DNA of 42,995 nt from an uncultured Candidatus Saccharibacteria bacterium (GCA_964390475.1 CAYMIB010000002.1:1-42995); one strand, 5' to 3'. Counted from the stretch's first letter, positions 20,558-35,986 are shown. Made by a program: numbers and translations. The notes: generated by a model from the sequence alone, not told the origin.

Positions 20558-21202
20558 ATGGTCTATATTTTTCTGGATGAATCTGGCGATTTGGGCTTTA
20601 ATTTTAAAAAGAAGAAAACTTCGAGGTATTTTATTATTACTGCCCTATTAACAAAAAATAAGACTCAGCTGGAGAAAATAGTTAAGAAAATATTTAGGGA
20701 CCTTGCTCCGAATGAAATTAAAACCCGCGGTGGAACATTGCACGCTCACAAAGAAAGTCCGAAAACAAGGCAAAAATTACTCGGATTATTTCACAATCAA
20801 ACGGGTACAAATATTGCTGTTATTTATATAAAGAAACAGATAGCTCACACAAACTTATTCAAGAAAAAACATCATTTATATTCTCAAATTATAAATGAAT
20901 TGCTCAGTAGAATATGTGAGAAAGAACTAATACCAAAAAATGAGATACTTCACATTTACGCTTCAAGAAGAGAGACCAACCGATCTCTGAATACTCACTT
21001 TTCCTCCTATCTTAAAAAGGAGTTAGAAACCCATTATAAAATAAGTGCTGAGATTTGTGTTCTTTCACCGTCGGCTGAAAAGGGTCTGCAGGTTGCTGAT
21101 ATGATCTCCTGGTCAATTTTCAGAAAATATGAACACGGTGACATAACTTACTACGAGACCATAGCAAAGGAAATTATTGAGGAAAATCAATTACACCCGT
21201 AG
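20558..21202 (+). CDS. DUF3800-family protein
   Basis: 214 aa. The N-terminal VYIFLDESGDLGF motif is typical of DUF3800. It is the only + strand gene in this stretch. Confidence 0.6.
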   Translation: MVYIFLDESGDLGFNFKKKKTSRYFIITALLTKNKTQLEKIVKKIFRDLAPNEIKTRGGTLHAHKESPKTRQKLLGLFHNQTGTNIAVIYIKKQIAHTNLFKKKHHLYSQIINELLSRICEKELIPKNEILHIYASRRETNRSLNTHFSSYLKKELETHYKISAEICVLSPSAEKGLQVADMISWSIFRKYEHGDITYYETIAKEIIEENQLHP

Positions 21203-23426: not shown

Positions 23427-23453
23427 ACGCGGAGTGTCCGAAGACCCCCGCGT
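23427..23453 (-). terminator. Strong intrinsic terminator ending the helicase/hairpin-tail transcript
   Basis: Minus strand: ACGCGGgggtc-TTCG-gacactCCGCGT followed by TTTTTTT. The loop is a cUUCGg tetraloop. This is the first terminator-like structure downstream of the helicase stop. Confidence 0.75.
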
Positions 23454-23456
23454 CTG

Positions 23457-24101
23457 TAGAAGAGAAAAGAACAACTAACTAGACAGAACCCTACGAAACT
23501 GAACACCAGAAACGCCCACAAAGCCTTTCAGCAATGTGAGCCTGTACTCGACCCGAGATCACTGAACAGTACTGCACGATACCACGCATCACATGGCGAT
23601 AATCGAATAGTGCGAGACGTTTTTCAACGCCCTGCACTCTGAACTACAACGAACAAAAGAGGACTTGGCGACACAGTACAATGCGCCAGTAAATCGAACT
23701 CAAATGTACACGAAAGGCCTTTCGGCTTCTCGTGTCGGCACAGAAGATCACAGGAGGCCACCGAACTACAGGTCACGACGCTACAGAGAACCTAACTGGA
23801 CTCAATCAGAAACGCACCAAGGACCTTCCGGCCTCCGGTGCCTGTACCAATCAATACTGTACCTAACAGTACACGACACCAGGTCACTAGAATTACAAGT
23901 GCACAGAAGCCCTTTCGGATTTCTGTGCCGATAGAGAACCGGACCTTAGGGTGCTCTAGAATACAGAACTCCACGGGACAGCACTTAACCTAAAATTGCA
24001 CAGAGTGATCGAAAGATTACTCTGTGCCTAAAGTACACCATACTGTACTCAGCGACACAGAGCGGCAGAGTACAAAAGTGAACCATGTGTCCGGCTACAA
24101 A
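23457..24101 (-). ncRNA. Hairpin-unit tail downstream of the helicase ORF (six hairpin units, no intervening terminator)
   Basis: Family hairpins at 23514-23541, 23610-23637, 23708-23735, 23814-23841, 23901-23928 and 23998-24027. Five are 28 nt (12 bp + GAAA/GGAA on the minus strand) and one is 30 nt. Spacing is 87-106 nt. No credible ORF, and no promoter or terminator between the helicase stop (24102) and 23453. Confidence 0.55.
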
Positions 24102-25940
24102 TTAGAGAAGCAGCTTCTCTGCATCCTTCACCGCGGCGTCAAACGTCAGGTCGCCCATGTAGACTTGCTGAAGATGTTTGGGCAGTGAAGCGAAGACGTG
24201 GCGACGGAACTGTTGGGAAATGAAGAACGTGACGCCAACATCGGAGCGGCTCCGAATGTTGCGTCCACGAACCTGAAGCGCTTGTTGCATTGCCCGCTGA
24301 CCCCAGATCGCCCAGCGCTGACCTCCCCACCGATCCTCCTCGAACTGAGTTCCAGGATCACGAGGGTTTGGATAACTTGGACGAAGAAAAAAGATGACGG
24401 GCGCCATCTGCCTTGGAAGATCAATTCCCTCGGCGTAGTTGGCGGCGGTACCAACCAAAGTACTTCCTTCACCCTGCTTGAAGATGTTGGCAGCTTCCTT
24501 GGCTGTTACACCGTTGCCGTAGCTGATTACCTCGAGACCCTCTTCTGCGGCCATCCGCAAAAAACGATCTCGTTCATCATTTGAAACGACAACCACCAAC
24601 GAACGTAGCCCCTTGTCGGCAAACTGCTTGCATGAACGTGCAATCTGACGCAACGTTTTTGGCAGATCCCGATCGCTCCGCGTATTTCTTGCGAGGTTTG
24701 GCGTGTCGGTTGGCATGTAGACCCTTGTATTGCTGGCTGGGAAATTCGAATCGAGAGACAGGAACGGATCCTTGATCCCCGTTTCGAACCCAAAGATCTC
24801 AGGGTTGCCAATCGTTGCCGACAGCGACACCCGGTTCTTAGGCAAAATCATTTTGATGAGCGGCACTACGTAGTAGCACCGCACCACCAACTTGGTTTGG
24901 AACCGACCTTCTGAGACACGTTCCCTTCTCTGGAATGCGCAGGTGTAGTTGAGTGCCTTCCTTTCTTCGGTTGGCACTGAATACTCAAGCGTTGAGATGT
25001 ACCGCCTGAGATCTCTCACGAGAGTCTCGAGCTTTTTCAATGTGACACGATCCTCACGTGGATCGATCTTGCCCTTTTTCACAGCATCTCTGATAGCAAC
25101 AGCAAGCTCTTTCACATCGATTTCCCGGAGGATTTCGATGAGTTGAAGAACTTGTGCTGGCTTGAGAAGCGCTGCTTCACCAACTGCCATGCGACCAGCG
25201 ATTGAAATCATCTTTCGCCTGAATGTCCTCAGGACTCTTGCGACCTTTGGGGCAACTGACGTCAGAATTTCTTCTGATCGCTTGAGGTGTAGATCAGTAA
25301 TGTCGTAGGAAAGAGAGTTGCGGACGACGTTTGCCAACTGATGCGCCTCGTCGATCACCACACCTTGAGTATTGAACTCCTTTGAAAACAAGTGGGTGAA
25401 GAGAAAGAAGGACATCGTTGAGAGCACAAGCCGTGCTTTCTTTGCCTTATACTTTTGCTGAAGATACGGGCAAGCCGTTGCTCCCTTCACATGAGTCTCG
25501 CCCGTTTCTTGGTCTACCCGATGCGGGCAGTCCTGAAGAAATGAACACGGAATCTGATCGGCACGAGGATTTTCTGGATCATCGACAAGTGTTTCAAGCG
25601 TTTCCGATGAAACTCTCGGCTCGTTCCGGTAATACAAGCACGGATGCTCATTTCGTCCCAAAGCAACTGGCAGATCCGGAAACTCTATCCGAATCTGATC
25701 CAAAATCGTCTTGGTCGGCGTAATGATGAACACCGTACCGTCTGTCTGCGTTCGCATGTAGTTTGCGATCGCAAATTCCACAGCCGTTTTTCCTGTCCCT
25801 GTCGGCGCCTCGATGATTGCAGAGCCATGCTCCGCGTAAAACTCGAGCATGTCGTTTTGCACAACTCGTGGCTCACGATACACCGCCGTGCTTGGAAAGT
25901 GCGTTTTAAGCACTGGCAAGCTGATGGTCTTTTGGCCCAT
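24102..25940 (-). CDS. DinG/XPD (Rad3)-family SF2 helicase with four-Cys Fe-S cluster insertion
   Basis: 612 aa. Strong SD (gaAAGGAGGtccataATG). Walker A APTGTGKT. Cys cluster HPCLYY..IPCSFLQDCPH..ACPYLQ. DEAH box VVIDEAHQL. Motif VI QALQVRGRNIRSRSDVGVTFF. Confidence 0.8.
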   Translation of the reverse strand: MGQKTISLPVLKTHFPSTAVYREPRVVQNDMLEFYAEHGSAIIEAPTGTGKTAVEFAIANYMRTQTDGTVFIITPTKTILDQIRIEFPDLPVALGRNEHPCLYYRNEPRVSSETLETLVDDPENPRADQIPCSFLQDCPHRVDQETGETHVKGATACPYLQQKYKAKKARLVLSTMSFFLFTHLFSKEFNTQGVVIDEAHQLANVVRNSLSYDITDLHLKRSEEILTSVAPKVARVLRTFRRKMISIAGRMAVGEAALLKPAQVLQLIEILREIDVKELAVAIRDAVKKGKIDPREDRVTLKKLETLVRDLRRYISTLEYSVPTEERKALNYTCAFQRRERVSEGRFQTKLVVRCYYVVPLIKMILPKNRVSLSATIGNPEIFGFETGIKDPFLSLDSNFPASNTRVYMPTDTPNLARNTRSDRDLPKTLRQIARSCKQFADKGLRSLVVVVSNDERDRFLRMAAEEGLEVISYGNGVTAKEAANIFKQGEGSTLVGTAANYAEGIDLPRQMAPVIFFLRPSYPNPRDPGTQFEEDRWGGQRWAIWGQRAMQQALQVRGRNIRSRSDVGVTFFISQQFRRHVFASLPKHLQQVYMGDLTFDAAVKDAEKLLL

Positions 25941-26114: not shown

Positions 26115-26383
26115 TAAAAAATGCCAGCAAATCTTTCGAAATGCTGGCCTGCACTATAGGAAACTGCACAATACGTAACATTACCTCACTCTACTTCGAT
26201 CAAATTGTCGGTTGCAGATTTCTCAGCAACCGACCAGTAGACCAGAAAAACTTACGGGACATTACCATGGTGTACGATACCCCACAGTATGAAGTGTCGA
26301 TCGAGTTTTTCAACCCGACCGACCCGCGCAGAACAATACCCTGCCGGACCGTAGACTTGTTAACTGAACCACGGGGCTTGTTC
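26115..26383 (-). ncRNA. Hairpin-RNA unit U7 (2 hairpins)
   Basis: Runs from the promoter in module A to the terminator GCCAGCAtttc-GAAA-gatttGCTGGC + AUUUUUU (26123-26148). Family hairpins at 26207-26234 and 26295-26322. Confidence 0.55.
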
Positions 26384-26389
26384 GATATT

Positions 26390-26446
26390 AGAATAACACG
26401 CCAGATTTGGCTTGTAAAGTAAAAGCCGAGGGTTGGGTACCTCGGC
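26390..26446 (-). promoter_or_regulatory. Fused terminator-promoter module A
   Basis: Minus strand: GCCGAGG-tacccaac-CCTCGGC cttttacTTTACA -17 nt- TGtTATTCT. The hairpin is at 26425-26446, the -35 at 26413-26418 and the -10 at 26390-26395. Confidence 0.6.
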
Positions 26447-26809
26447 GAGTAGAACACGGAGCTGAAGGCAAGGGCACGTTAGAAAGGTTGACCCTACGAC
26501 ACTGAACCGGAAGTGTTGGCTTTGTGTTCCCACAAAACTAACCTATAGAGAACTGAACATAACTCGAGTGTAGGATACCTAGCTGGACTCTAATGAAATT
26601 GTCAGTTCGACCTTTCGACCAAACTGACCTATAGGAAAGGAAACGCGAGATCACAACGCTGGACAGTACTCCACCTGACGCTACTCAACATTACTCAACT
26701 AAAATTGTCATCCGGATTTTTCAACCCAGATGACCCATAGAATGCAGTACACCACCGCACGGCACCTCACACCACTTGAGGCTACTCAACATTACTGAAC
26801 CCAAGTTCC
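26417..26809 (-). ncRNA. Hairpin-RNA unit U6 (3 hairpins)
   Basis: Lies between the module B promoter and the module A terminator. Hairpins at 26515-26542, 26601-26628 and 26707-26734. Confidence 0.55.
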
Positions 26810-26815
26810 AAAAGG

Positions 26816-26872
26816 ATAATAACACGGAATATAATTTTTGTAAAATAAAAGCCGAGGGTTGATTACCTCGGC
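26816..26872 (-). promoter_or_regulatory. Fused terminator-promoter module B
   Basis: Minus strand: GCCGAGG-taatcaac-CCTCGGC ttttatTTTACA -17 nt- TGtTATTAT. Hairpin at 26851-26872, -35 at 26839-26844, -10 at 26816-26821. Confidence 0.65.
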
Positions 26873-27663
26873 GTACACTGTGGTCGACTTCGCATGACGA
26901 TACGAAACTAGACACGAACAAACTTGAAGTGTTGGCTGACCTTTTCAAGTCCGCCAACGAGCAGTGCGACAAACATTACTATAGTGCACAACACAATACA
27001 GTGCGCTATTTACCAGGTGGTCAAAAGTGTCAGTCGAGCCTTTCGGTCCAACTGACCCAAACATCACGTTAGGAGAGAGTGCCTTACTGCACAATACCTA
27101 GCCTGACAAGACCAGACAAATCGTCAGCGAGATCTTTGAACCTCGCTGACCCATACAGCAGTTTACTATTCCTTACTAGACTGAGCTATGCTCTAGAACA
27201 GTGAACCGCGTTTATCTATTACAATATCTCAACCGATTTTTTCAAACCGGTCGAGCCTTAGAATACCGTGATGTAGAAGACAGGAGACTACGTCGCCATA
27301 CTCGACCTGAGTCTACCCGACGGTGAAAATTTGTCAGTCCAGTTTTCACCAAACTGACCGAAAGTGGAGAACACTTAGGTATACGGCACAATACCGTACG
27401 ATACCCTGGCGAACTAAAACGTCAGTTCAACCTTCCGGCTAGACTGACCTACAGATAACTGAACCTGACTCGAACGCAGGTTACCTAGCTGGACTCTAAT
27501 GAAATTGTCAGTTCGACCTTTCGACCAAACTGACCGATAGAAAACTCAACTTGGCGGAACAAAACTGGACGCAACTAGAATTGTCATCCGGATTTTTCAA
27601 CCCAGATGACCAGTACTGCTCAGTAGCCAACTGCGCGGGACTCAACCTTGCAATACTCTATCC
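26843..27663 (-). ncRNA. Hairpin-RNA unit U5 (8 hairpins, longest unit)
   Basis: Hairpins at 26931-26958, 27029-27056, 27123-27150, 27228-27255, 27333-27358, 27421-27448, 27507-27534 and 27583-27610. Bounded by the module C promoter and the module B terminator. Confidence 0.55.
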
Positions 27664-27669
27664 GAATGC

Positions 27670-27724
27670 ATAATAACATGAATTATTTTTTTGTAAAATA
27701 AAAACCGAGGGTTGGTTACCTCGG
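27670..27724 (-). promoter_or_regulatory. Fused terminator-promoter module C
   Basis: Minus strand: CCGAGG-taaccaac-CCTCGG tttttatTTTACA -16 nt- TGtTATTAT. Hairpin at 27705-27724, -35 at 27692-27697, -10 at 27670-27675. Confidence 0.6.
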
Positions 27725-28099
27725 CGAAAAGCTAAGTGCCAATCACTTCTTTCGAAGAGAATGGCCCATACACAGCGGTACCGCACGCCAGGCCACCTGA
27801 CCTTACAGTGGTACACGAAGCTGAAATTGCTAGTCGAACTTTTCAGTTCGACTAGCCGGTACAAGACTCATGAGTACACGACCGAAGTCAACAGAACACT
27901 ACCGGAAATGTCAGCGTCACCTCTCGGCGAAACTGACCTACAGAGGAGTCAACACTGGGTTGCTGCACAAAACTCTACCTAACACTGCTACACGAAAGGA
28001 CAAAATGTCGAACTTGTGTTTCCACAAGATCGACCCTCAGAACACAAAGCCAGACTGGACAGAGCAACACACCACTAAACCATGTTATAAAAGCTGTCT
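27697..28099 (-). ncRNA. Hairpin-RNA unit U4 (4 hairpins)
   Basis: Hairpins at 27738-27765, 27829-27856 (perfect 12 bp + GAAA), 27910-27937 (GAGA loop) and 28007-28034. Confidence 0.55.
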
Positions 28100-28105
28100 A
28101 GCAAG

Positions 28106-28159
28106 ACAATAACACAAATTATTTTTTTGTAAAGAAAAACCGGCCACTTGGACCGGTTT
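28106..28159 (-). promoter_or_regulatory. Fused terminator-promoter module D (terminates the 86-aa ORF, promotes U4)
   Basis: Minus strand: AAACCGGtccaagtggCCGGTTT ttcTTTACA -16 nt- TGtTATTGT. The hairpin sequence differs from the other modules, but the promoter half is conserved. Confidence 0.6.
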
Positions 28160-28177
28160 GTGCTGTGACTCAGAGAT

Positions 28178-28438
28178 TCACTCGAACAAATAGAAGAGCT
28201 CTCCCTTCACGAGATCCTTCTCCTCAACCTCAATTTTCCCCTCAATCTCCTTAAGGATTTCTTTCCAATTCTCGGTGTTCTCACCAGTCCGGTATGTGAA
28301 TCTCTCAGCAATAGACTCACACCGTCCACCACCCTCTTGCCTTTGGCAGAGAATTCTGTCGGCCTCTTCCCGATTTTCAGCCAGAATCACGTAGCTGGTC
28401 AAGCCTGGTCCTGTGTAAATGTACGCCTTCAATTCCAT
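28178..28438 (-). CDS. Orphan 86-aa protein occupying one slot of the RNA-unit array
   Basis: The internal ATG at 28438 has the SD aAGGGGAaagtcATG. The track start at 28513 abuts the upstream terminator with no room for a promoter or RBS. Product MELKAYIYTGPGLTSYVILAENREEADRILCQ... has no motif I recognise. Confidence 0.6.
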   Translation of the reverse strand: MELKAYIYTGPGLTSYVILAENREEADRILCQRQEGGGRCESIAERFTYRTGENTENWKEILKEIEGKIEVEEKDLVKGELFYLFE

Positions 28439-28475
28439 GACTTTCCCCTTCGTTTGTGTGTTTGGATCTTTTCTC

Positions 28476-28504
28476 AGAGTATCATAAATATAAATACTTG
28501 TCAA
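28476..28504 (-). promoter_or_regulatory. Extended -10 promoter of the 86-aa ORF
   Basis: Minus strand: TTGACAagtatttatatttaTGaTACTCT with a 17-nt spacer. Confidence 0.55.
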
Positions 28505-28518
28505 ATGGACCATTCATA

Positions 28519-28800
28519 ATAAAAAAGTCGAGGATTGGTTACCTCGACGCGCACCAGGGTAAAGACTAGGCTACGAAACAAAACGGAACACTACTTTGCG
28601 AAATTGAAATTATTAGCTGAGCCTTTCGACCCAGCTAATCTACAGAGGAACAGACTGAGGTTAACGGTGCGATACGTTACCGTACGCCGCCTTAGACCAA
28701 ATTGTCAATCTCGCCTTTCAGCCAGACTGACCCGGAGAGTACTACAGTCAACAGCGGTAGACGGTAGATCACTGCACGTGAGTGAAGAACATCACGATCC
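28519..28800 (-). ncRNA. Hairpin-RNA unit U3 (2 hairpins)
   Basis: Hairpins at 28612-28639 (AUUAG.../...CUAAU base) and 28704-28731. Confidence 0.55.
28521..28548 (-). terminator. Terminator E (ends unit U3)
   Basis: Minus strand: GTCGAGG-taaccaat-CCTCGAC followed by TTTTTTATTAT. Same hairpin family as modules A-C, F and G, with a compensatory stem change. Confidence 0.65.
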
Positions 28801-28806
28801 GCACTC

Positions 28807-28862
28807 ACTATAACACGAATATCGTTTTTGTAAAATAAAAGCCAAGGGTTGGGTACCTCGGC
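28807..28862 (-). promoter_or_regulatory. Fused terminator-promoter module F
   Basis: Minus strand: GCCGAGG-tacccaac-CCTTGGC ttttatTTTACA -16 nt- TGtTATAGT. The stem has a G.U pair on the minus strand, which would be an A.C mismatch on the + strand. Confidence 0.6.
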
Positions 28863-29043
28863 GAGTAGGAAGGTGGACACCAGAAGACGATGCGAAACAC
28901 AACAGTAAAACACTGAACTTTATTTTTTTGAATTGTCAGCCCAGTTTTTCAACCGGACTGACCCGCAGACAACTACACAGCAGTAGAGTACACGTCACAT
29001 CACGCAACTCGACCGTGCAAAACGTAACCTCAATTACTTTTCT
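28833..29043 (-). ncRNA. Hairpin-RNA unit U2 (1 hairpin)
   Basis: Single hairpin at 28935-28962, identical in sequence to the inverted copy at 30833-30860. Confidence 0.55.
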
Positions 29044-29049
29044 TCAAAG

Positions 29050-29105
29050 ACAATAACATGGATTTATATTTTGTAAAATAAAAGCCAAGGATTGGTTACC
29101 TTGGC
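29050..29105 (-). promoter_or_regulatory. Fused terminator-promoter module G
   Basis: Minus strand: GCCAAGG-taaccaat-CCTTGGC ttttatTTTACA -16 nt- TGtTATTGT. The stem carries a compensatory G-C to A-U change relative to modules A-C. Confidence 0.6.
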
Positions 29106-29744
29106 GTAGAGTGGAGTACACAGAACGACACTGAAGAGTGCAAGAGGATACCGCACACCACGTCACCTCAGACCACGCTAAAGCGTCAGCTCGATTTTTC
29201 AATCAAGCTGACCCGTACCTGGGAATACAACAGCTTGCTGGACGAGAGACTAGCGTACACTACTGGACCAAAGCGTCAGCTTAGTTTTTCAACCAGGCTG
29301 ACCAGCACGGAAGTCCGGCCCACGAGACATGGCTAGACACCACTTCAAATTGTCGGCATCACCTTTCGGTGTAACCGACCGGCACAGAACTCTGCCGTAG
29401 CTTACAGGGCTATACGTAACAGAGCCACAGACAAAATTAAATTGTCGACCGTGTGTTTCCACAAGATCGACCCTTAGCACAGCACAGTTAACGGCAGAAC
29501 ACGGCAGTTCACGGCACTTGAGTGTAGATCAAAGTGTTAGCCCAGCATTTCTACCGGGTTAACCAGCAGTGTACATCACCGCACATTACCAAAGACGACG
29601 TCACGCTACGAAACCTCACTTCAAAATTGTTGGCACCGCGTCTCCGCGATGCCAACCCATAGAGCACCGGACGCGACCTGGCGATACCTAACAATACCTT
29701 GGGTGACAATACCCTGGGTGACTGTACCCAACTTAGATCGATCC
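29076..29744 (-). ncRNA. Hairpin-RNA unit U1 (6 hairpins)
   Basis: Hairpins at 29185-29212, 29275-29302, 29352-29379, 29444-29471, 29536-29563 and 29629-29656. The 5' end is inferred from the putative promoter at 29751-29779. Confidence 0.5.
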
Positions 29745-29750
29745 TCACAA

Positions 29751-29793
29751 AATCTACTATCATGTTGACACGAAGTCAACCGTATGTTAAGTT
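29751..29793. promoter_or_regulatory. Back-to-back divergent promoters sharing a palindromic -35 region
   Basis: + strand: TTGACAcgaagtcaaccgtaTGtTAAGTT (29765-29793, 17-nt spacer) for the 242-aa gene. Minus strand: TTGACT -17 nt- TAGATT (29779 down to 29751) for U1. gTTGAC-acgaa-GTCAAc is a perfect inverted repeat. Confidence 0.5.
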
Positions 29794-29880: not shown

Positions 29881-30609
29881 ATGAAGCGTTTGCTGATCAC
29901 GTGTGTTGGTGCGTATCCCATCATGATGGACCCGATGACTGATGAAGTGCTCGACAGCCTCGCAACAGGCGTCCGTGTTCAGATCCAGAAGGATCTGTCT
30001 CATGCCGATGTCGCTCGCAAGAAGATCTACCGCGAGAATGGCGACAAGGATGGTCGGATCGGCCTGCCGACCGAAATGCTTTTCGCGGCATTGGTTGCGG
30101 CAGGTCGCAAGGTTTCCTACCGAGGCAAAACCAATATCTCGACCGCTGAAACCTCCATGTTGCCCGGCCTGCTCACGATCAACGAGGACTTCCTGCCGTT
30201 CCCAATTCCGGACGGCGCGACCGAGCCGAAGTGGACGGTCGACAAGCGGCGTGGACGTCTGGAGAACGGTACGGCTGTGTGCTTGCGTCGTCCCAAGTTC
30301 GCCGACTGGGGTTTCGAGGTCACCATTGACTTCGATGACAAGGAGATCAGCGAGGGCAAGGTTCGAGAACTCTTCAACATCGCCGGCCGGTTCTGCGGAC
30401 TCGGATCTTTCCGACCGAGCTGCAAGGGTCCGTTTGGTCGGTTCGCGGTCCAGAAACTCGCCGACATCACGCCCACCGAATGGGCGAATGAGCCGGCTGA
30501 GGAAATCGAAGAGGGCGACGACACTGACCAGACTGGCGGCGAAGAGCGCCGGACTGGCAACAGTCATGGCAGGACCGGGACCAGGAACGGCGCGCTCGCG
30601 GGAGCTTGA
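29881..30609 (+). CDS. GC-rich 242-aa hypothetical protein with RAMP-like glycine-rich motif (possible RNA-binding/processing protein)
   Basis: SD acGGAGaaagaccATG. Of three overlapping long frames this is the only one with an RBS and a balanced composition. GLGSFRPSCKGPFGRF, near the end of the folded part, resembles the RAMP/Cas6-type G-rich loop (weak). Acidic disordered tail. The functional call is low confidence. Confidence 0.75.
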   Translation: MKRLLITCVGAYPIMMDPMTDEVLDSLATGVRVQIQKDLSHADVARKKIYRENGDKDGRIGLPTEMLFAALVAAGRKVSYRGKTNISTAETSMLPGLLTINEDFLPFPIPDGATEPKWTVDKRRGRLENGTAVCLRRPKFADWGFEVTIDFDDKEISEGKVRELFNIAGRFCGLGSFRPSCKGPFGRFAVQKLADITPTEWANEPAEEIEEGDDTDQTGGEERRTGNSHGRTGTRNGALAGA

Positions 30610-30698
30610 ACCGGCAACTGACGTTCTTCAGAAGGCAATGTTGTTTTGTAGTGCATAGTAAACAGCAGTTGCGTCATGCGCGTTTCTGTTCACTATCG

Positions 30699-30756
30699 CG
30701 GGCGTCCTGAAAAGGGCGCCCGTTTTTCTTTACTAAATCGAAATTTGTGTTATCTT
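30699..30756 (+). promoter_or_regulatory. Fused terminator-promoter module on the + strand
   Basis: CGGGCGTCCT-GAAA-AGGGCGCCCG (10 bp + GAAA) followed by TTTTTcTTTACT -16 nt- TGtTATCTT. Same layout as the minus-strand modules. Confidence 0.6.
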
Positions 30757-30762
30757 GGCGTT

Positions 30763-30964
30763 TGGACTCAAGTAGACTAGTGTTCCGTTGAGTACAGCAG
30801 GCTTGAGTATGGATCAGTTCTCTTTTCCGCGGGTCAGTCCGGTTGAAAAACTGGGCTGACGATTAGACCTCAGTTTTGTGTTCCACAGTTCGCTCGTGTG
30901 ACGTGATGTCCATTTAAGTTCCGTTTTCTGTCCGCCAGGGTATCCAATCCCTGGCTTTTATTTT
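30763..30964 (+). ncRNA. Inverted (plus-strand) hairpin-RNA unit, paralogue of U2
   Basis: Hairpin at 30833-30860 (GTCAGTCCGGTT-GAAA-AACTGGGCTGAC). Terminator GCCAGGG-tatccaat-CCCTGGC + TTTTATTTT at 30934-30964, abutting the tgt stop codon. Confidence 0.55.
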
Positions 30965-34618: not shown

Positions 34619-35986
34619 TTAATCCAACTGCTCTTTAATATACTTCTGAAGTTCTTGGATTCGATTTCGAATCTGGGCGGCACGTTCAAATTCTTCGCTA
34701 GCGGCCATTGTTTTCTTTTCTTCTTCGAGTTTTGAAATCATTTTTTCAACTTCCGCTCGTGGCAGTTTTGGAATATGAGCATCGGTTCTTTGGCGAATGT
34801 CTTCGTCTTCAACTTTTGACATCGCATCAACCCTTCCTGATCTCTGCCAGTCAAAAGCCATGAAAACAATGTCATGGTAAAGGTTCTTAGCCTTTTCTAA
34901 TTTTTCTGGAGAAATGTTTGGCACGAGGCGAACTGAATCAAAAAGTTCCTTCGCTCCTCGTTCTACCATTTCAATACTCCACCATGGCCTAGCCGAAGCC
35001 CACCAATATTGGTCAGAATGAAGTGCTCGGTCTAGGGAATGTCTAGCTTCCGCATAACCAGCCATTTTTTGGTCAGCGTTGGCTACGGTTTCGATTGCAA
35101 AATTTGTCAGTTCCCATTGTAGTTTTTGAATTTCATTGTCGTCATCTAGCCACCGCGCAAAAGGAATGCGCTTTTCTTTGTCTTTTTCCATAAGCGCCCA
35201 AGTCGACGGAATAGGATCAATTTCTTTTTCTTCTTTAAAATACTGAGGCAACTCCGAAACCAAAACGGATTTTAGCCCACTTGCTTCATGCATTTCAAAA
35301 AGAAGTTCTTCGAGACCCGGCCGATGATGTCCGAACGACTCTCCGTCCATGGCGGTCAGCAAGTATTCATTTTTATTAATTCTGTCACCAAGGTTTTGAA
35401 CTAAAAGATTGGCCGTTCCAACCTGGCCAGAAAGAATAATCCAACTCATCCGACGCTCGCGAAAATAAATATTGAAATCTGGAATACCCGGAATGTTGTA
35501 AATTTTTCCATAATCAACCGGCCGTTTGTCCATTGGAAATGAAAGTTCATCAACAATCACCCATTTATATCCGAGTTTGTGAACGATTTTTCCAACTTCA
35601 ACATCAAAACCCATTTCTGGCGGGAAAAAACCAACCGGCTTCCACAAATCACCGAAATATTTTCTCAGCACTTCTTCGTTTAACTTAATCTGGCGAATGA
35701 CTTCATTTTCCGGCAAAAAAGGCAAAAGCGGATGATATTTAGCGCTGCCGGTGATTTCAATCTGTCCCCTTTTAAGAAGCTCACGAATCATATCGATGAC
35801 ATCAATGTGACCGTTTTCCTCAAGCAGTTCGAGCAATATTCCGTTGATATTAAAAGTAACCTTGTTTCCAGGCTGTTTTAAAAGACCTTTTATAATTGGC
35901 CGATATGACTCGGCTGTAATTTTATTTACCCATACCGGCTTTTGTGTCGGTGGTTGGTAAAAGTGAAGAAAATTTGCCCAGTACAT
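34619..35986 (-). CDS. Glycoside hydrolase family 57 protein with C-terminal UVR-like helix
   Basis: 455 aa. GH57 conserved regions are recognisable (LHFYQPP, GQIEITGSAKYHPLLP, MDGESFGHH, HSDQYWWA). The C-terminus EEFERAAQIRNRIQELQ resembles a UVR motif. Confidence 0.75.
   Translation of the reverse strand: MYWANFLHFYQPPTQKPVWVNKITAESYRPIIKGLLKQPGNKVTFNINGILLELLEENGHIDVIDMIRELLKRGQIEITGSAKYHPLLPFLPENEVIRQIKLNEEVLRKYFGDLWKPVGFFPPEMGFDVEVGKIVHKLGYKWVIVDELSFPMDKRPVDYGKIYNIPGIPDFNIYFRERRMSWIILSGQVGTANLLVQNLGDRINKNEYLLTAMDGESFGHHRPGLEELLFEMHEASGLKSVLVSELPQYFKEEKEIDPIPSTWALMEKDKEKRIPFARWLDDDNEIQKLQWELTNFAIETVANADQKMAGYAEARHSLDRALHSDQYWWASARPWWSIEMVERGAKELFDSVRLVPNISPEKLEKAKNLYHDIVFMAFDWQRSGRVDAMSKVEDEDIRQRTDAHIPKLPRAEVEKMISKLEEEKKTMAASEEFERAAQIRNRIQELQKYIKEQLD

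Follow-up and report, generated by a model that had tools for sequence, protein, structure and literature searches.

The window examined here is a stretch of 42,995 nucleotides (nt) from an uncultured Candidatus Saccharibacteria bacterium (GCA_964390475.1 CAYMIB010000002.1:1-42995), in which a prediction made from the sequence alone (the original prediction) had singled out a family of RNA hairpins of fixed geometry on the minus strand. Our analysis indicates that this locus is very probably an array of guide RNAs (vrRNAs) belonging to a VIPR (Viral Interference Programmable Repeat) system on the chromosome of a Saccharibacteria/Patescibacteria bacterium, and that the hairpins are the 3' tails of these vrRNAs. 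VIPR resembles CRISPR in recognising DNA by means of guide RNAs. The assignment follows from the combination of a Vipr profile match, a pentanucleotide code, a structured tail and a conserved vipr-array-helicase module. According to one of the two preprints on VIPR, Vipr is an ancestral RAMP of ~20 kDa. A vrRNA is built of 9-16 YNNGG repeats and ends in an invariable, structured 3' tail (a pseudoknot in SUSP1); DNA is paired by the variable NN bases, and one target base is skipped per repeat. The same preprint distinguishes seven VIPR types by their accessory vap genes, with nucleases or helicases in types III-V, and mentions alternative repeats (NNNGG, YNNNG and NNNNG) and varying array architectures (bioRxiv 10.64898/2026.04.26.720920). 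The second preprint describes a right-handed Vipr filament with one protomer per repeat, in which the G-loop and the thumb recognise the flipped-out GGY bases and the pseudoknot caps the 3' end, beside which target engagement begins before running 3' to 5' (10.64898/2026.04.26.720927). Between them, the two 2026 preprints characterise two type II systems, one from Escherichia phage SUSP1 and the other from a Pseudomonas fulva prophage. The window contains a Vipr-type RAMP, tracts of 9-16 pentamers with a fixed G and pyrimidine, a structured 3' tail in register with them and a linked vap-like helicase. The canonical YNNGG (GGY/NN) repeat was not found; the locus uses a YNNNG (GY/NNN) repeat, which is among the alternatives listed in the preprint and therefore marks a variant rather than an exclusion.

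Both strands of the window were scanned for 12-bp stems closed by a 4-nt loop, with G-U pairs and at most one mismatch allowed. The minus strand yielded 41 matches and the plus strand 24, an excess that is due to the G-U pairs; about 30 of the minus-strand matches fell inside two arrays (26207-29656 and 23610-24027), corresponding to ~7 per kb, compared with ~0.3 per kb elsewhere. The same family was recovered, at 60-90% identity, by a repeat search that used sequence similarity alone. Most copies carry a GAAA loop, and GAGA, GGAA and a single CAAA also occur; the copy at 23998-24027 has a UUUC loop on a 13-bp stem. Positional bias was detected in the flanks, with U at -5 and -10, G at -1 and A-(A/C)-U-U 3' of the stem, in agreement with the semi-conserved flanks that had been predicted. 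In minimum-free-energy folds of whole modules the hairpin was retained, and the tract adjoining it had no consistent structure. A search of the window against Rfam at gathering thresholds returned only two tRNA-Ala genes, both outside the arrays; at E<=1 a single weak suhB/mmgR match (25 bits, against a gathering score of 41) appeared on the vipr terminator and was taken as chance. Scanning of IMG/VR with the hairpin pattern gave 0 matches, and megablast of the array against phage genomes gave none. The two arrays and the single plus-strand copy (30833-30860) were correctly located in the original prediction. Its list was incomplete, because it lacked a tail with an 11-bp stem (26123-26148) and seven terminator hairpins that also serve as tails.

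Covariation was analyzed in 73 hairpins drawn from the window and from two Saccharibacteria metagenome-assembled genomes (MAGs). Paired cells amounted to 94.3% in the observed alignment and to 63.8% after shuffling, and none of 500 shuffles reached the observed value; since the copies had been picked by a hairpin scan, the percentage paired is inflated, an effect that bears less on the count of pair types and on the double changes. Double-sided changes were found at 12 of the 12 stem pairs, and control structures, in which the 3' partner was slid by 1-3 columns, were merely 31-44% paired. At its base the stem has five largely fixed pairs (GUCAG/CUGAC), and its seven inner pairs are free to vary. 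The eighth pair from the base (alignment columns 16 and 29) was unpaired in 22 of the 73 hairpins, far above any other position, and an internal mismatch may be tolerated or preferred there. About 100 G-U cells would turn into A-C mismatches on the opposite strand, so the structure belongs to the minus-strand RNA. These data support the view that RNA shape, rather than DNA sequence, is under selection, as had been proposed: the G-U pairs are strand-specific, compensatory changes occur at all 12 pairs, and the geometry is kept across species with unrelated inner stems.

The strand specificity of the fold also bears on the possibility that the hairpins are DNA-level repeats, i.e., REP/BIME or MITE-like palindromes spread by a transposase. 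REP/BIME elements are hundreds of near-identical intergenic palindromes, often in inverted pairs, that are accompanied by a RAYT transposase. The copies in the window are likewise imperfect palindromes, and their conserved 5' head loosely recalls the GTAG head of REP; however, all of them lie at one locus and in one orientation per array, with none in the other 35 kb of the window, and their stems differ by compensatory changes. No RAYT or other transposase was noticed beside the arrays, although no search aimed at transposases was made. We therefore give this explanation hardly any credence, and the earlier preference for an RNA element over a DNA repeat stands. The hairpin family is genuine and well explained, and it is not a new kind of element.

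The sequence between the hairpins had been treated as a spacer, a view that has to be abandoned, because this sequence holds a pentanucleotide repeat code that is the defining and informative feature of the locus. Same-base autocorrelation peaked at lags of 5, 10, 15 and 20 nt in every array of the three genomes (0.31-0.36, compared with ~0.24; 0.33-0.35 in the second array of the window), and such peaks were absent from the helicase and uvrB coding sequences. Linker lengths are quantised in steps of 5 nt (48, 53, 58, 63, 68 and 78 nt, with a mode of 58). Counted from the first base of the hairpin, U occupies positions -5, -10 and so on to -55 in 65-89% of copies, and G (otherwise C) occupies positions -6, -11 and so on to -51 in 54-74%; the three positions between the fixed G and U are unbiased, and the pattern runs through 11 repeats upstream of the hairpin. 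From the autocorrelation, the length steps and the positional bias, we conclude that each linker is a tract of 9-16 [G/C]-U-N-N-N repeats in a register fixed relative to the hairpin. The CURYAG flank of the original prediction is the last of these pentamers, in hairpin register, and the AAUUU flank contains the first one, with UU in place of GU. Thus the linkers, not the hairpins, carry the variable sequence. Whole modules of guide and hairpin have been duplicated at 74-80% identity (26527-26664 and 27433-27570; 26668-26765 and 27544-27641), indicating that the array has grown by segmental duplication and divergence rather than by spacer acquisition at one end. A 15-nt tandem repeat of 2.1 copies is present inside the first vrRNA (29691-29722), where three pentamers (CACCC AGGGU AUUGU) are duplicated in register.

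We counted about 41 putative vrRNAs in the window: 27 with a hairpin tail and 5 with a terminator tail between 26123 and 29745, 6 and 1, respectively, between 23431 and 24090, and 2 on the plus strand (30760-30955). The main array comprises several non-coding units that carry one to eight hairpins each. Its seven sigma-70-like promoters (TTTACA, a gap of 16-17 nt and a TG-extended TATTGT or TATTAT) each lie directly 3' of an intrinsic terminator (GCCGAGG-N8-CCUCGGC-UUUU), with the -35 box within a few bases of it. The terminators form a repeat family of their own, and the tract upstream of them is in exact pentamer register; seven of these hairpins double as tails (five in the main array, one in the second array and one on the plus strand), and the closing stem of some units has 7 bp and a loop of 8 nt. 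The last unit closes on the 11-bp tail noted above, and the tract upstream of it was parsed by hand in the same register (gu GCA / cu AUA / gu UUC / gu GCA ...). No promoter-like site was detected ahead of the second array, between 24100 and 24000, and this array may therefore be co-transcribed with the helicase gene. One cassette inside the main array contains an open reading frame (ORF) of 86 amino acids (aa) with its own promoter, ribosome-binding site and terminator. It matched nothing in Pfam, NCBIfam or PADLOC and has no homolog in the two Saccharibacteria MAGs or any other fetched locus, and it is probably an insertion outside the system.

The protein encoded divergently beside the main array gave no match in Pfam, NCBIfam or PADLOC, and only 40 relatives were recovered from 5.8 billion proteins, the sole organism-named match being labelled Patescibacteria. 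A profile of this family matched PDB 36pp_D, "SUSP1 Vipr protein" (E = 1.1e-11, residues 2-193), in a full-length match that includes the thumb arginine (R137) and the G-loop, and 36pp was the only solved structure matched. The AlphaFold (AF2) model of the protein (pLDDT 87.8) was compared with known structures using Foldseek, and the best matches were to type III and type VII CRISPR complexes, namely to their Csm3/Cas7 backbone subunits (probability 1.0). Motifs conserved in the family are W-x-VDKRRG, RPKF and GLGSFRPxCKGPFGRF, and the syntenic ORF of one Saccharibacteria MAG (L006) is 57% identical. A protein partner for the hairpin RNAs had been anticipated, and the neighboring Vipr-family RAMP gene is the likely candidate by homology.

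A second protein gene of the locus, between the two arrays, encodes a 612-aa helicase with Pfam matches to Helicase_C_2, DEAD, ResIII and DEAD_2. Its best match among defence systems was PADLOC typeIV_DinG (PDLC01439, E = 5.6e-41, residues 23-585 of 612), and it scored 29 bits against the NCBIfam equivalog cas_csf4, for which the cut-off is 400. The helicase adjoins vipr and the array in six of six Patescibacteria loci (46-76% identity) whose flanking genes are unrelated, and it was absent from all 80 viral Vipr loci examined. This association suggests that the DinG-like helicase functions as an accessory protein of the Patescibacteria Vipr clade, and the PADLOC match raises a possible evolutionary link between helicase-associated VIPR and type IV CRISPR-Cas.

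That match is also the starting point for reading the locus as a degenerate or derived type IV-like CRISPR array, in which 41-nt hairpin repeats would be cut by a Cas6-like RAMP, the intervals would be spacers and DinG would correspond to Csf4. The neighboring protein is indeed a RAMP with a G-rich loop, and hairpin repeats alternating with 48-78-nt intervals resemble a CRISPR array. We nevertheless judge this very unlikely, because the repeats are merely 60-90% identical and covary instead of being copies of one sequence, the intervals are G/U-periodic pentamer tracts with 5-nt length quantisation rather than arbitrary spacers, and the array grew by segmental duplication. There is, in addition, a single RAMP among the scanned ORFs beside the arrays (the others being uvrB, tgt and an ORF without a match; the ORFs of the window were scanned in part), none of csf1, csf2, csf3 and cas1 was seen adjoining the array, and by sequence the protein is closer to Vipr than to any Cas protein of solved structure.

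Related loci were examined as well. One genome per species was scanned with the pattern GGTCAG-N7-GAAA-N7-CTGACANTTT, and multiple matches were found in two Candidatus Saccharibacteria MAGs, L005 and L006, which contain 16 and 31 hairpins, respectively. Their geometry, loop and flanks are as in the window, and their inner stem sequences are unrelated. Gene order is identical in the three genomes: an ORF of ~245 aa, the main array in divergent orientation, a helicase of ~615 aa, a second small array and uvrB; identity is 76% between the helicases and 57% between the small ORFs. Three further Vipr homologs, less closely related (45-56% identity), were located on long Patescibacteria contigs with wholly different neighbors (tRNA synthetases, dnaX). 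There, vipr is followed by ~2.2-2.5 kb without genes and by a DinG-like helicase of ~600 aa, and the gene-free stretch contains [G/C]-Y-NNN tracts and then hairpins with a conserved base (GGGCRG...CYGCC-A). Vipr, an array of ~2.2-3.7 kb and the helicase thus occur together in six Patescibacteria loci. A search of IMG/VR with the same family profile yielded 147 viral relatives (24-36% identity), from which 80 loci were retained; most of the 80 bear canonical GGYNN tracts on the vipr strand. GYNNN tracts were numerous in the five Patescibacteria loci tested, where the count of GGYNN tracts was 0, and the positional profile of the window fixes G-U alone. A serine at the position of SUSP1 D177, the reader of the first G, was considered as an explanation for the lost G and rejected, as several family members keep the aspartate (GLGDFRP) yet lack GGY tracts. 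Guides are in part shared between species: in one orthologous pair (L005 5846-5909 and L006 4013-4075), nine of the 12 NNN triplets are identical, and a CGA-TAT-TCA run is common to the L005/L006 guide and to the window guide at 26543-26600, which hints at conserved targets. In L013 (1700-4160 and 7003-8328), a large serine recombinase lies just downstream of the second array, and that locus may be part of a mobile element.

The caps differ between the relatives' loci, with 12-bp stems and GNRA loops in L011, UUCG tetraloops in L013 and stems of 6-9 bp with other loops in L009, so that the fixed geometry of 12 bp and a GNRA loop is peculiar to this lineage. Conservation extends to a stable cap at the 3' end and to five base pairs at the foot of the stem, not to the loop class. 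The conservation of the loop that had been predicted therefore holds within Saccharibacteria and fails as a general rule, as the 8-nt loops on the terminator tails of the window also show. For the same reason a tetraloop-receptor ligand is not sustained as a partner, the geometry being no requirement of the system. These observations also bear on the earlier proposal that the locus encodes CsrB/RsmZ-style regulatory or sponge small RNAs (sRNAs), with multiple GNRA hairpins that titrate an RNA-binding protein or dock in a tetraloop receptor. Tandem sRNA-like units with promoters, terminators and repeated stem-loops, and a loop class kept among the Saccharibacteria, would fit this proposal, but the variation of the loop in relatives of the module does not, and neither the pentamer code with its length quantisation nor the linked Vipr homolog is explained by it. 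The repeated GGA that hairpin loops of Csr/Rsm RNAs display was also not found (loops are GAAA, GAGA or GGAA), and there was no Rfam match. We consider a sponge function highly improbable.

In comparison with the VIPR systems of SUSP1 and others, the window shares the small single-RRM RAMP, 9-16 pentamers with a fixed G and pyrimidine, the conserved structured 3' tail, vrRNAs on both sides of the protein genes and an accessory gene predicted to act on DNA. It differs in its repeat, which fixes two bases and leaves three variable ([G/C]-U-NNN in place of GGY-NN), and in its tail, a 12-bp tetraloop hairpin or a terminator instead of a pseudoknot. It holds about ten times the four vrRNAs of SUSP1, arranged in promoter-terminator cassettes of up to eight; its accessory gene is a DinG-like helicase, a class that the preprint places, with nucleases, in types III-V; and the locus is not viral but lies on the chromosome, in synteny across Saccharibacteria. 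Type IV-A CRISPR-Cas (Csf1-3, Cas6/Csf5 and the DinG helicase Csf4) similarly combines RAMP-based, RNA-guided DNA binding with a DinG helicase and has guides with a 3' hairpin, whereas the window has no CRISPR array of identical repeats, its guides are pentamer-coded and not contiguous, and one RAMP gene is present at the locus without a Csf1/Cas8-like or Cas5 gene. The Cas7 filaments of class 1 systems (Csm3/Cas7 on CRISPR RNA) share the predicted fold, the binding of one protomer per fixed number of nucleotides and a base-flipping thumb; their period is 6 nt and independent of sequence, whereas that of VIPR is 5 nt and the flipped bases are read sequence-specifically. TRAP on the (G/U)AG repeats of trp leader RNA, a protein oligomer that reads a short motif every 5 nt, is an analogy for periodic RNA reading only, since it has an unrelated fold, forms a closed 11-mer ring and has no guide function.

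By analogy with the type II cryo-EM structures, a working model can be proposed. Sigma-70-type promoters would drive short, polycistronic, non-coding transcripts, each a string of vrRNAs, which would presumably be cut or trimmed into single vrRNAs. Vipr would polymerise on each of them into a helical filament with one protomer per pentamer, sequestering the conserved G-Y, while the variable bases would be displayed to double-stranded DNA for gapped pairing. The hairpin would cap the 3' end, where target engagement would start, and would probably set the pentamer register and bound neighboring vrRNAs; such a role would account for the fixed geometry, the conserved stem base and flanks, and the free inner stem. 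The helicase may act on the bound DNA, as DinG does in type IV-A CRISPR.

Several points weigh against this assignment. The guide function of the arrays is suggested by homology alone. The fixed motif is G-Y, not G-G-Y, and the published rule of a 1-nt skip may not transfer. The locus occupies a conserved housekeeping neighborhood, from uvrB to tgt, in three Saccharibacteria genomes, while the reported context of VIPR is mostly viral or proviral. Searches for targets were negative: in local searches with skips of 0, 1 and 3 the guides did not outscore their shuffled versions, and at skip 2 each guide retrieved only its own locus; six pattern scans of IMG/VR with three guides (skip 0 and skip 1, 18-21 specified bases, exact matching) gave 0 matches; and a blastn query made of 19 skip-0 guides, concatenated, had no match among phage genomes. 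This negative result is weak, as few guides were used, matching was exact and the collections probably lack the relevant phages. The array may also act on non-phage targets, such as genes of the bacterium or of its host, given that it is large, syntenic and core-chromosomal and that some of its guides are common to species. Likewise, the Patescibacteria Vipr-helicase clade may read three bases per pentamer (G-Y fixed, NNN variable) in a geometry unlike the published 5:3 code, and, with its Csf4-like helicase and hairpin-capped guides, it could be the closest living link between VIPR and type IV CRISPR-Cas. To this more speculative reading as a whole we assign a low, though not trivial, probability.

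Table 1. Positions of the predicted VIPR features and of a probably inserted cassette in the window.
Feature	Position	Strand	Basis or remark
Hairpins of 28 nt, 12-bp stem and GNRA loop; each the putative 3' tail of one vrRNA	26207..29656	-	Hairpin scan, covariation, folds
Main vrRNA array, ~32 putative vrRNAs in seven non-coding promoter-to-terminator units	26123..29779	-	Pentamer register, promoter and terminator sites
Additional tail, GAAA loop on an 11-bp stem and then a U run; also the terminator of the last unit	26123..26148	-	Read from the sequence
Terminator serving as tail, GCCRAGG-N8-CCUYGGC and U run	29084..29105	-	Tail of the last vrRNA of its unit
Sister terminator tails	28841-28862, 28527-28548, 26851-26872, 26425-26446	-	Upstream tracts in the same register
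Terminator	27704-27725	-	Directly after a hairpin tail; caps no guide
Cassette with 86-aa ORF (MELKAYIYTGPG...)	28178..28438	-	Visible in the sequence
DinG/XPD-like helicase, 612 aa, candidate vipr-accessory (vap) gene	24102..25940	-	Between the two arrays; Pfam and PADLOC matches
Second vrRNA array, six hairpin-tailed (stems GCACAG.. and similar) and one terminator-tailed	23431..24090	-	Downstream of the helicase
Terminator tail ending the second array	23431-23448	-	Upstream tract in pentamer register
vipr gene, 242-aa single-RRM RAMP protein, C-terminal glycine-rich loop (GLGSFRPSCKGPFGRF)	29881..30609	+	Profile match, AF2 model; divergent neighbor of the array
vipr terminator	30698-30723	+	Downstream of vipr
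Promoter	~30727-30755	+	Downstream of the vipr terminator
Hairpin-tailed putative vrRNA	~30760-30860 (hairpin 30833-30860)	+	Downstream of vipr
Terminator-tailed putative vrRNA	30861-30955 (terminator 30934-30955)	+	Pentamer register upstream; plus-strand block 30698..30964

Two further observations concern the surroundings of the locus. A DUF3800 gene (20558-21202, plus strand) lies between uvrB and a histidine kinase gene, in a kilobase of low GC content (36%), and may represent a small insertion. A GH57 glycoside hydrolase (34619-35986, minus strand) has a UVR (UvrB/UvrC) motif at its C-terminus, and this pairing of domains is unusual.

VIPR was first described in 2026; the two systems characterised to date are phage-borne and of type II, and the window would add a well-resolved chromosomal example from an ultra-small episymbiont. 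The locus combines a very large putative guide repertoire, the less-studied GY/NNN code, a simple covarying hairpin cap and a co-occurring DinG-like helicase, and the covariation of the hairpins defines which parts of the tail matter. It would thus be suited to asking whether DNA is paired through three bases per repeat, what a helicase contributes to a VIPR filament and how VIPR is related to type IV CRISPR-Cas. For genome annotation, hairpin arrays of this kind are best read along with their linkers.

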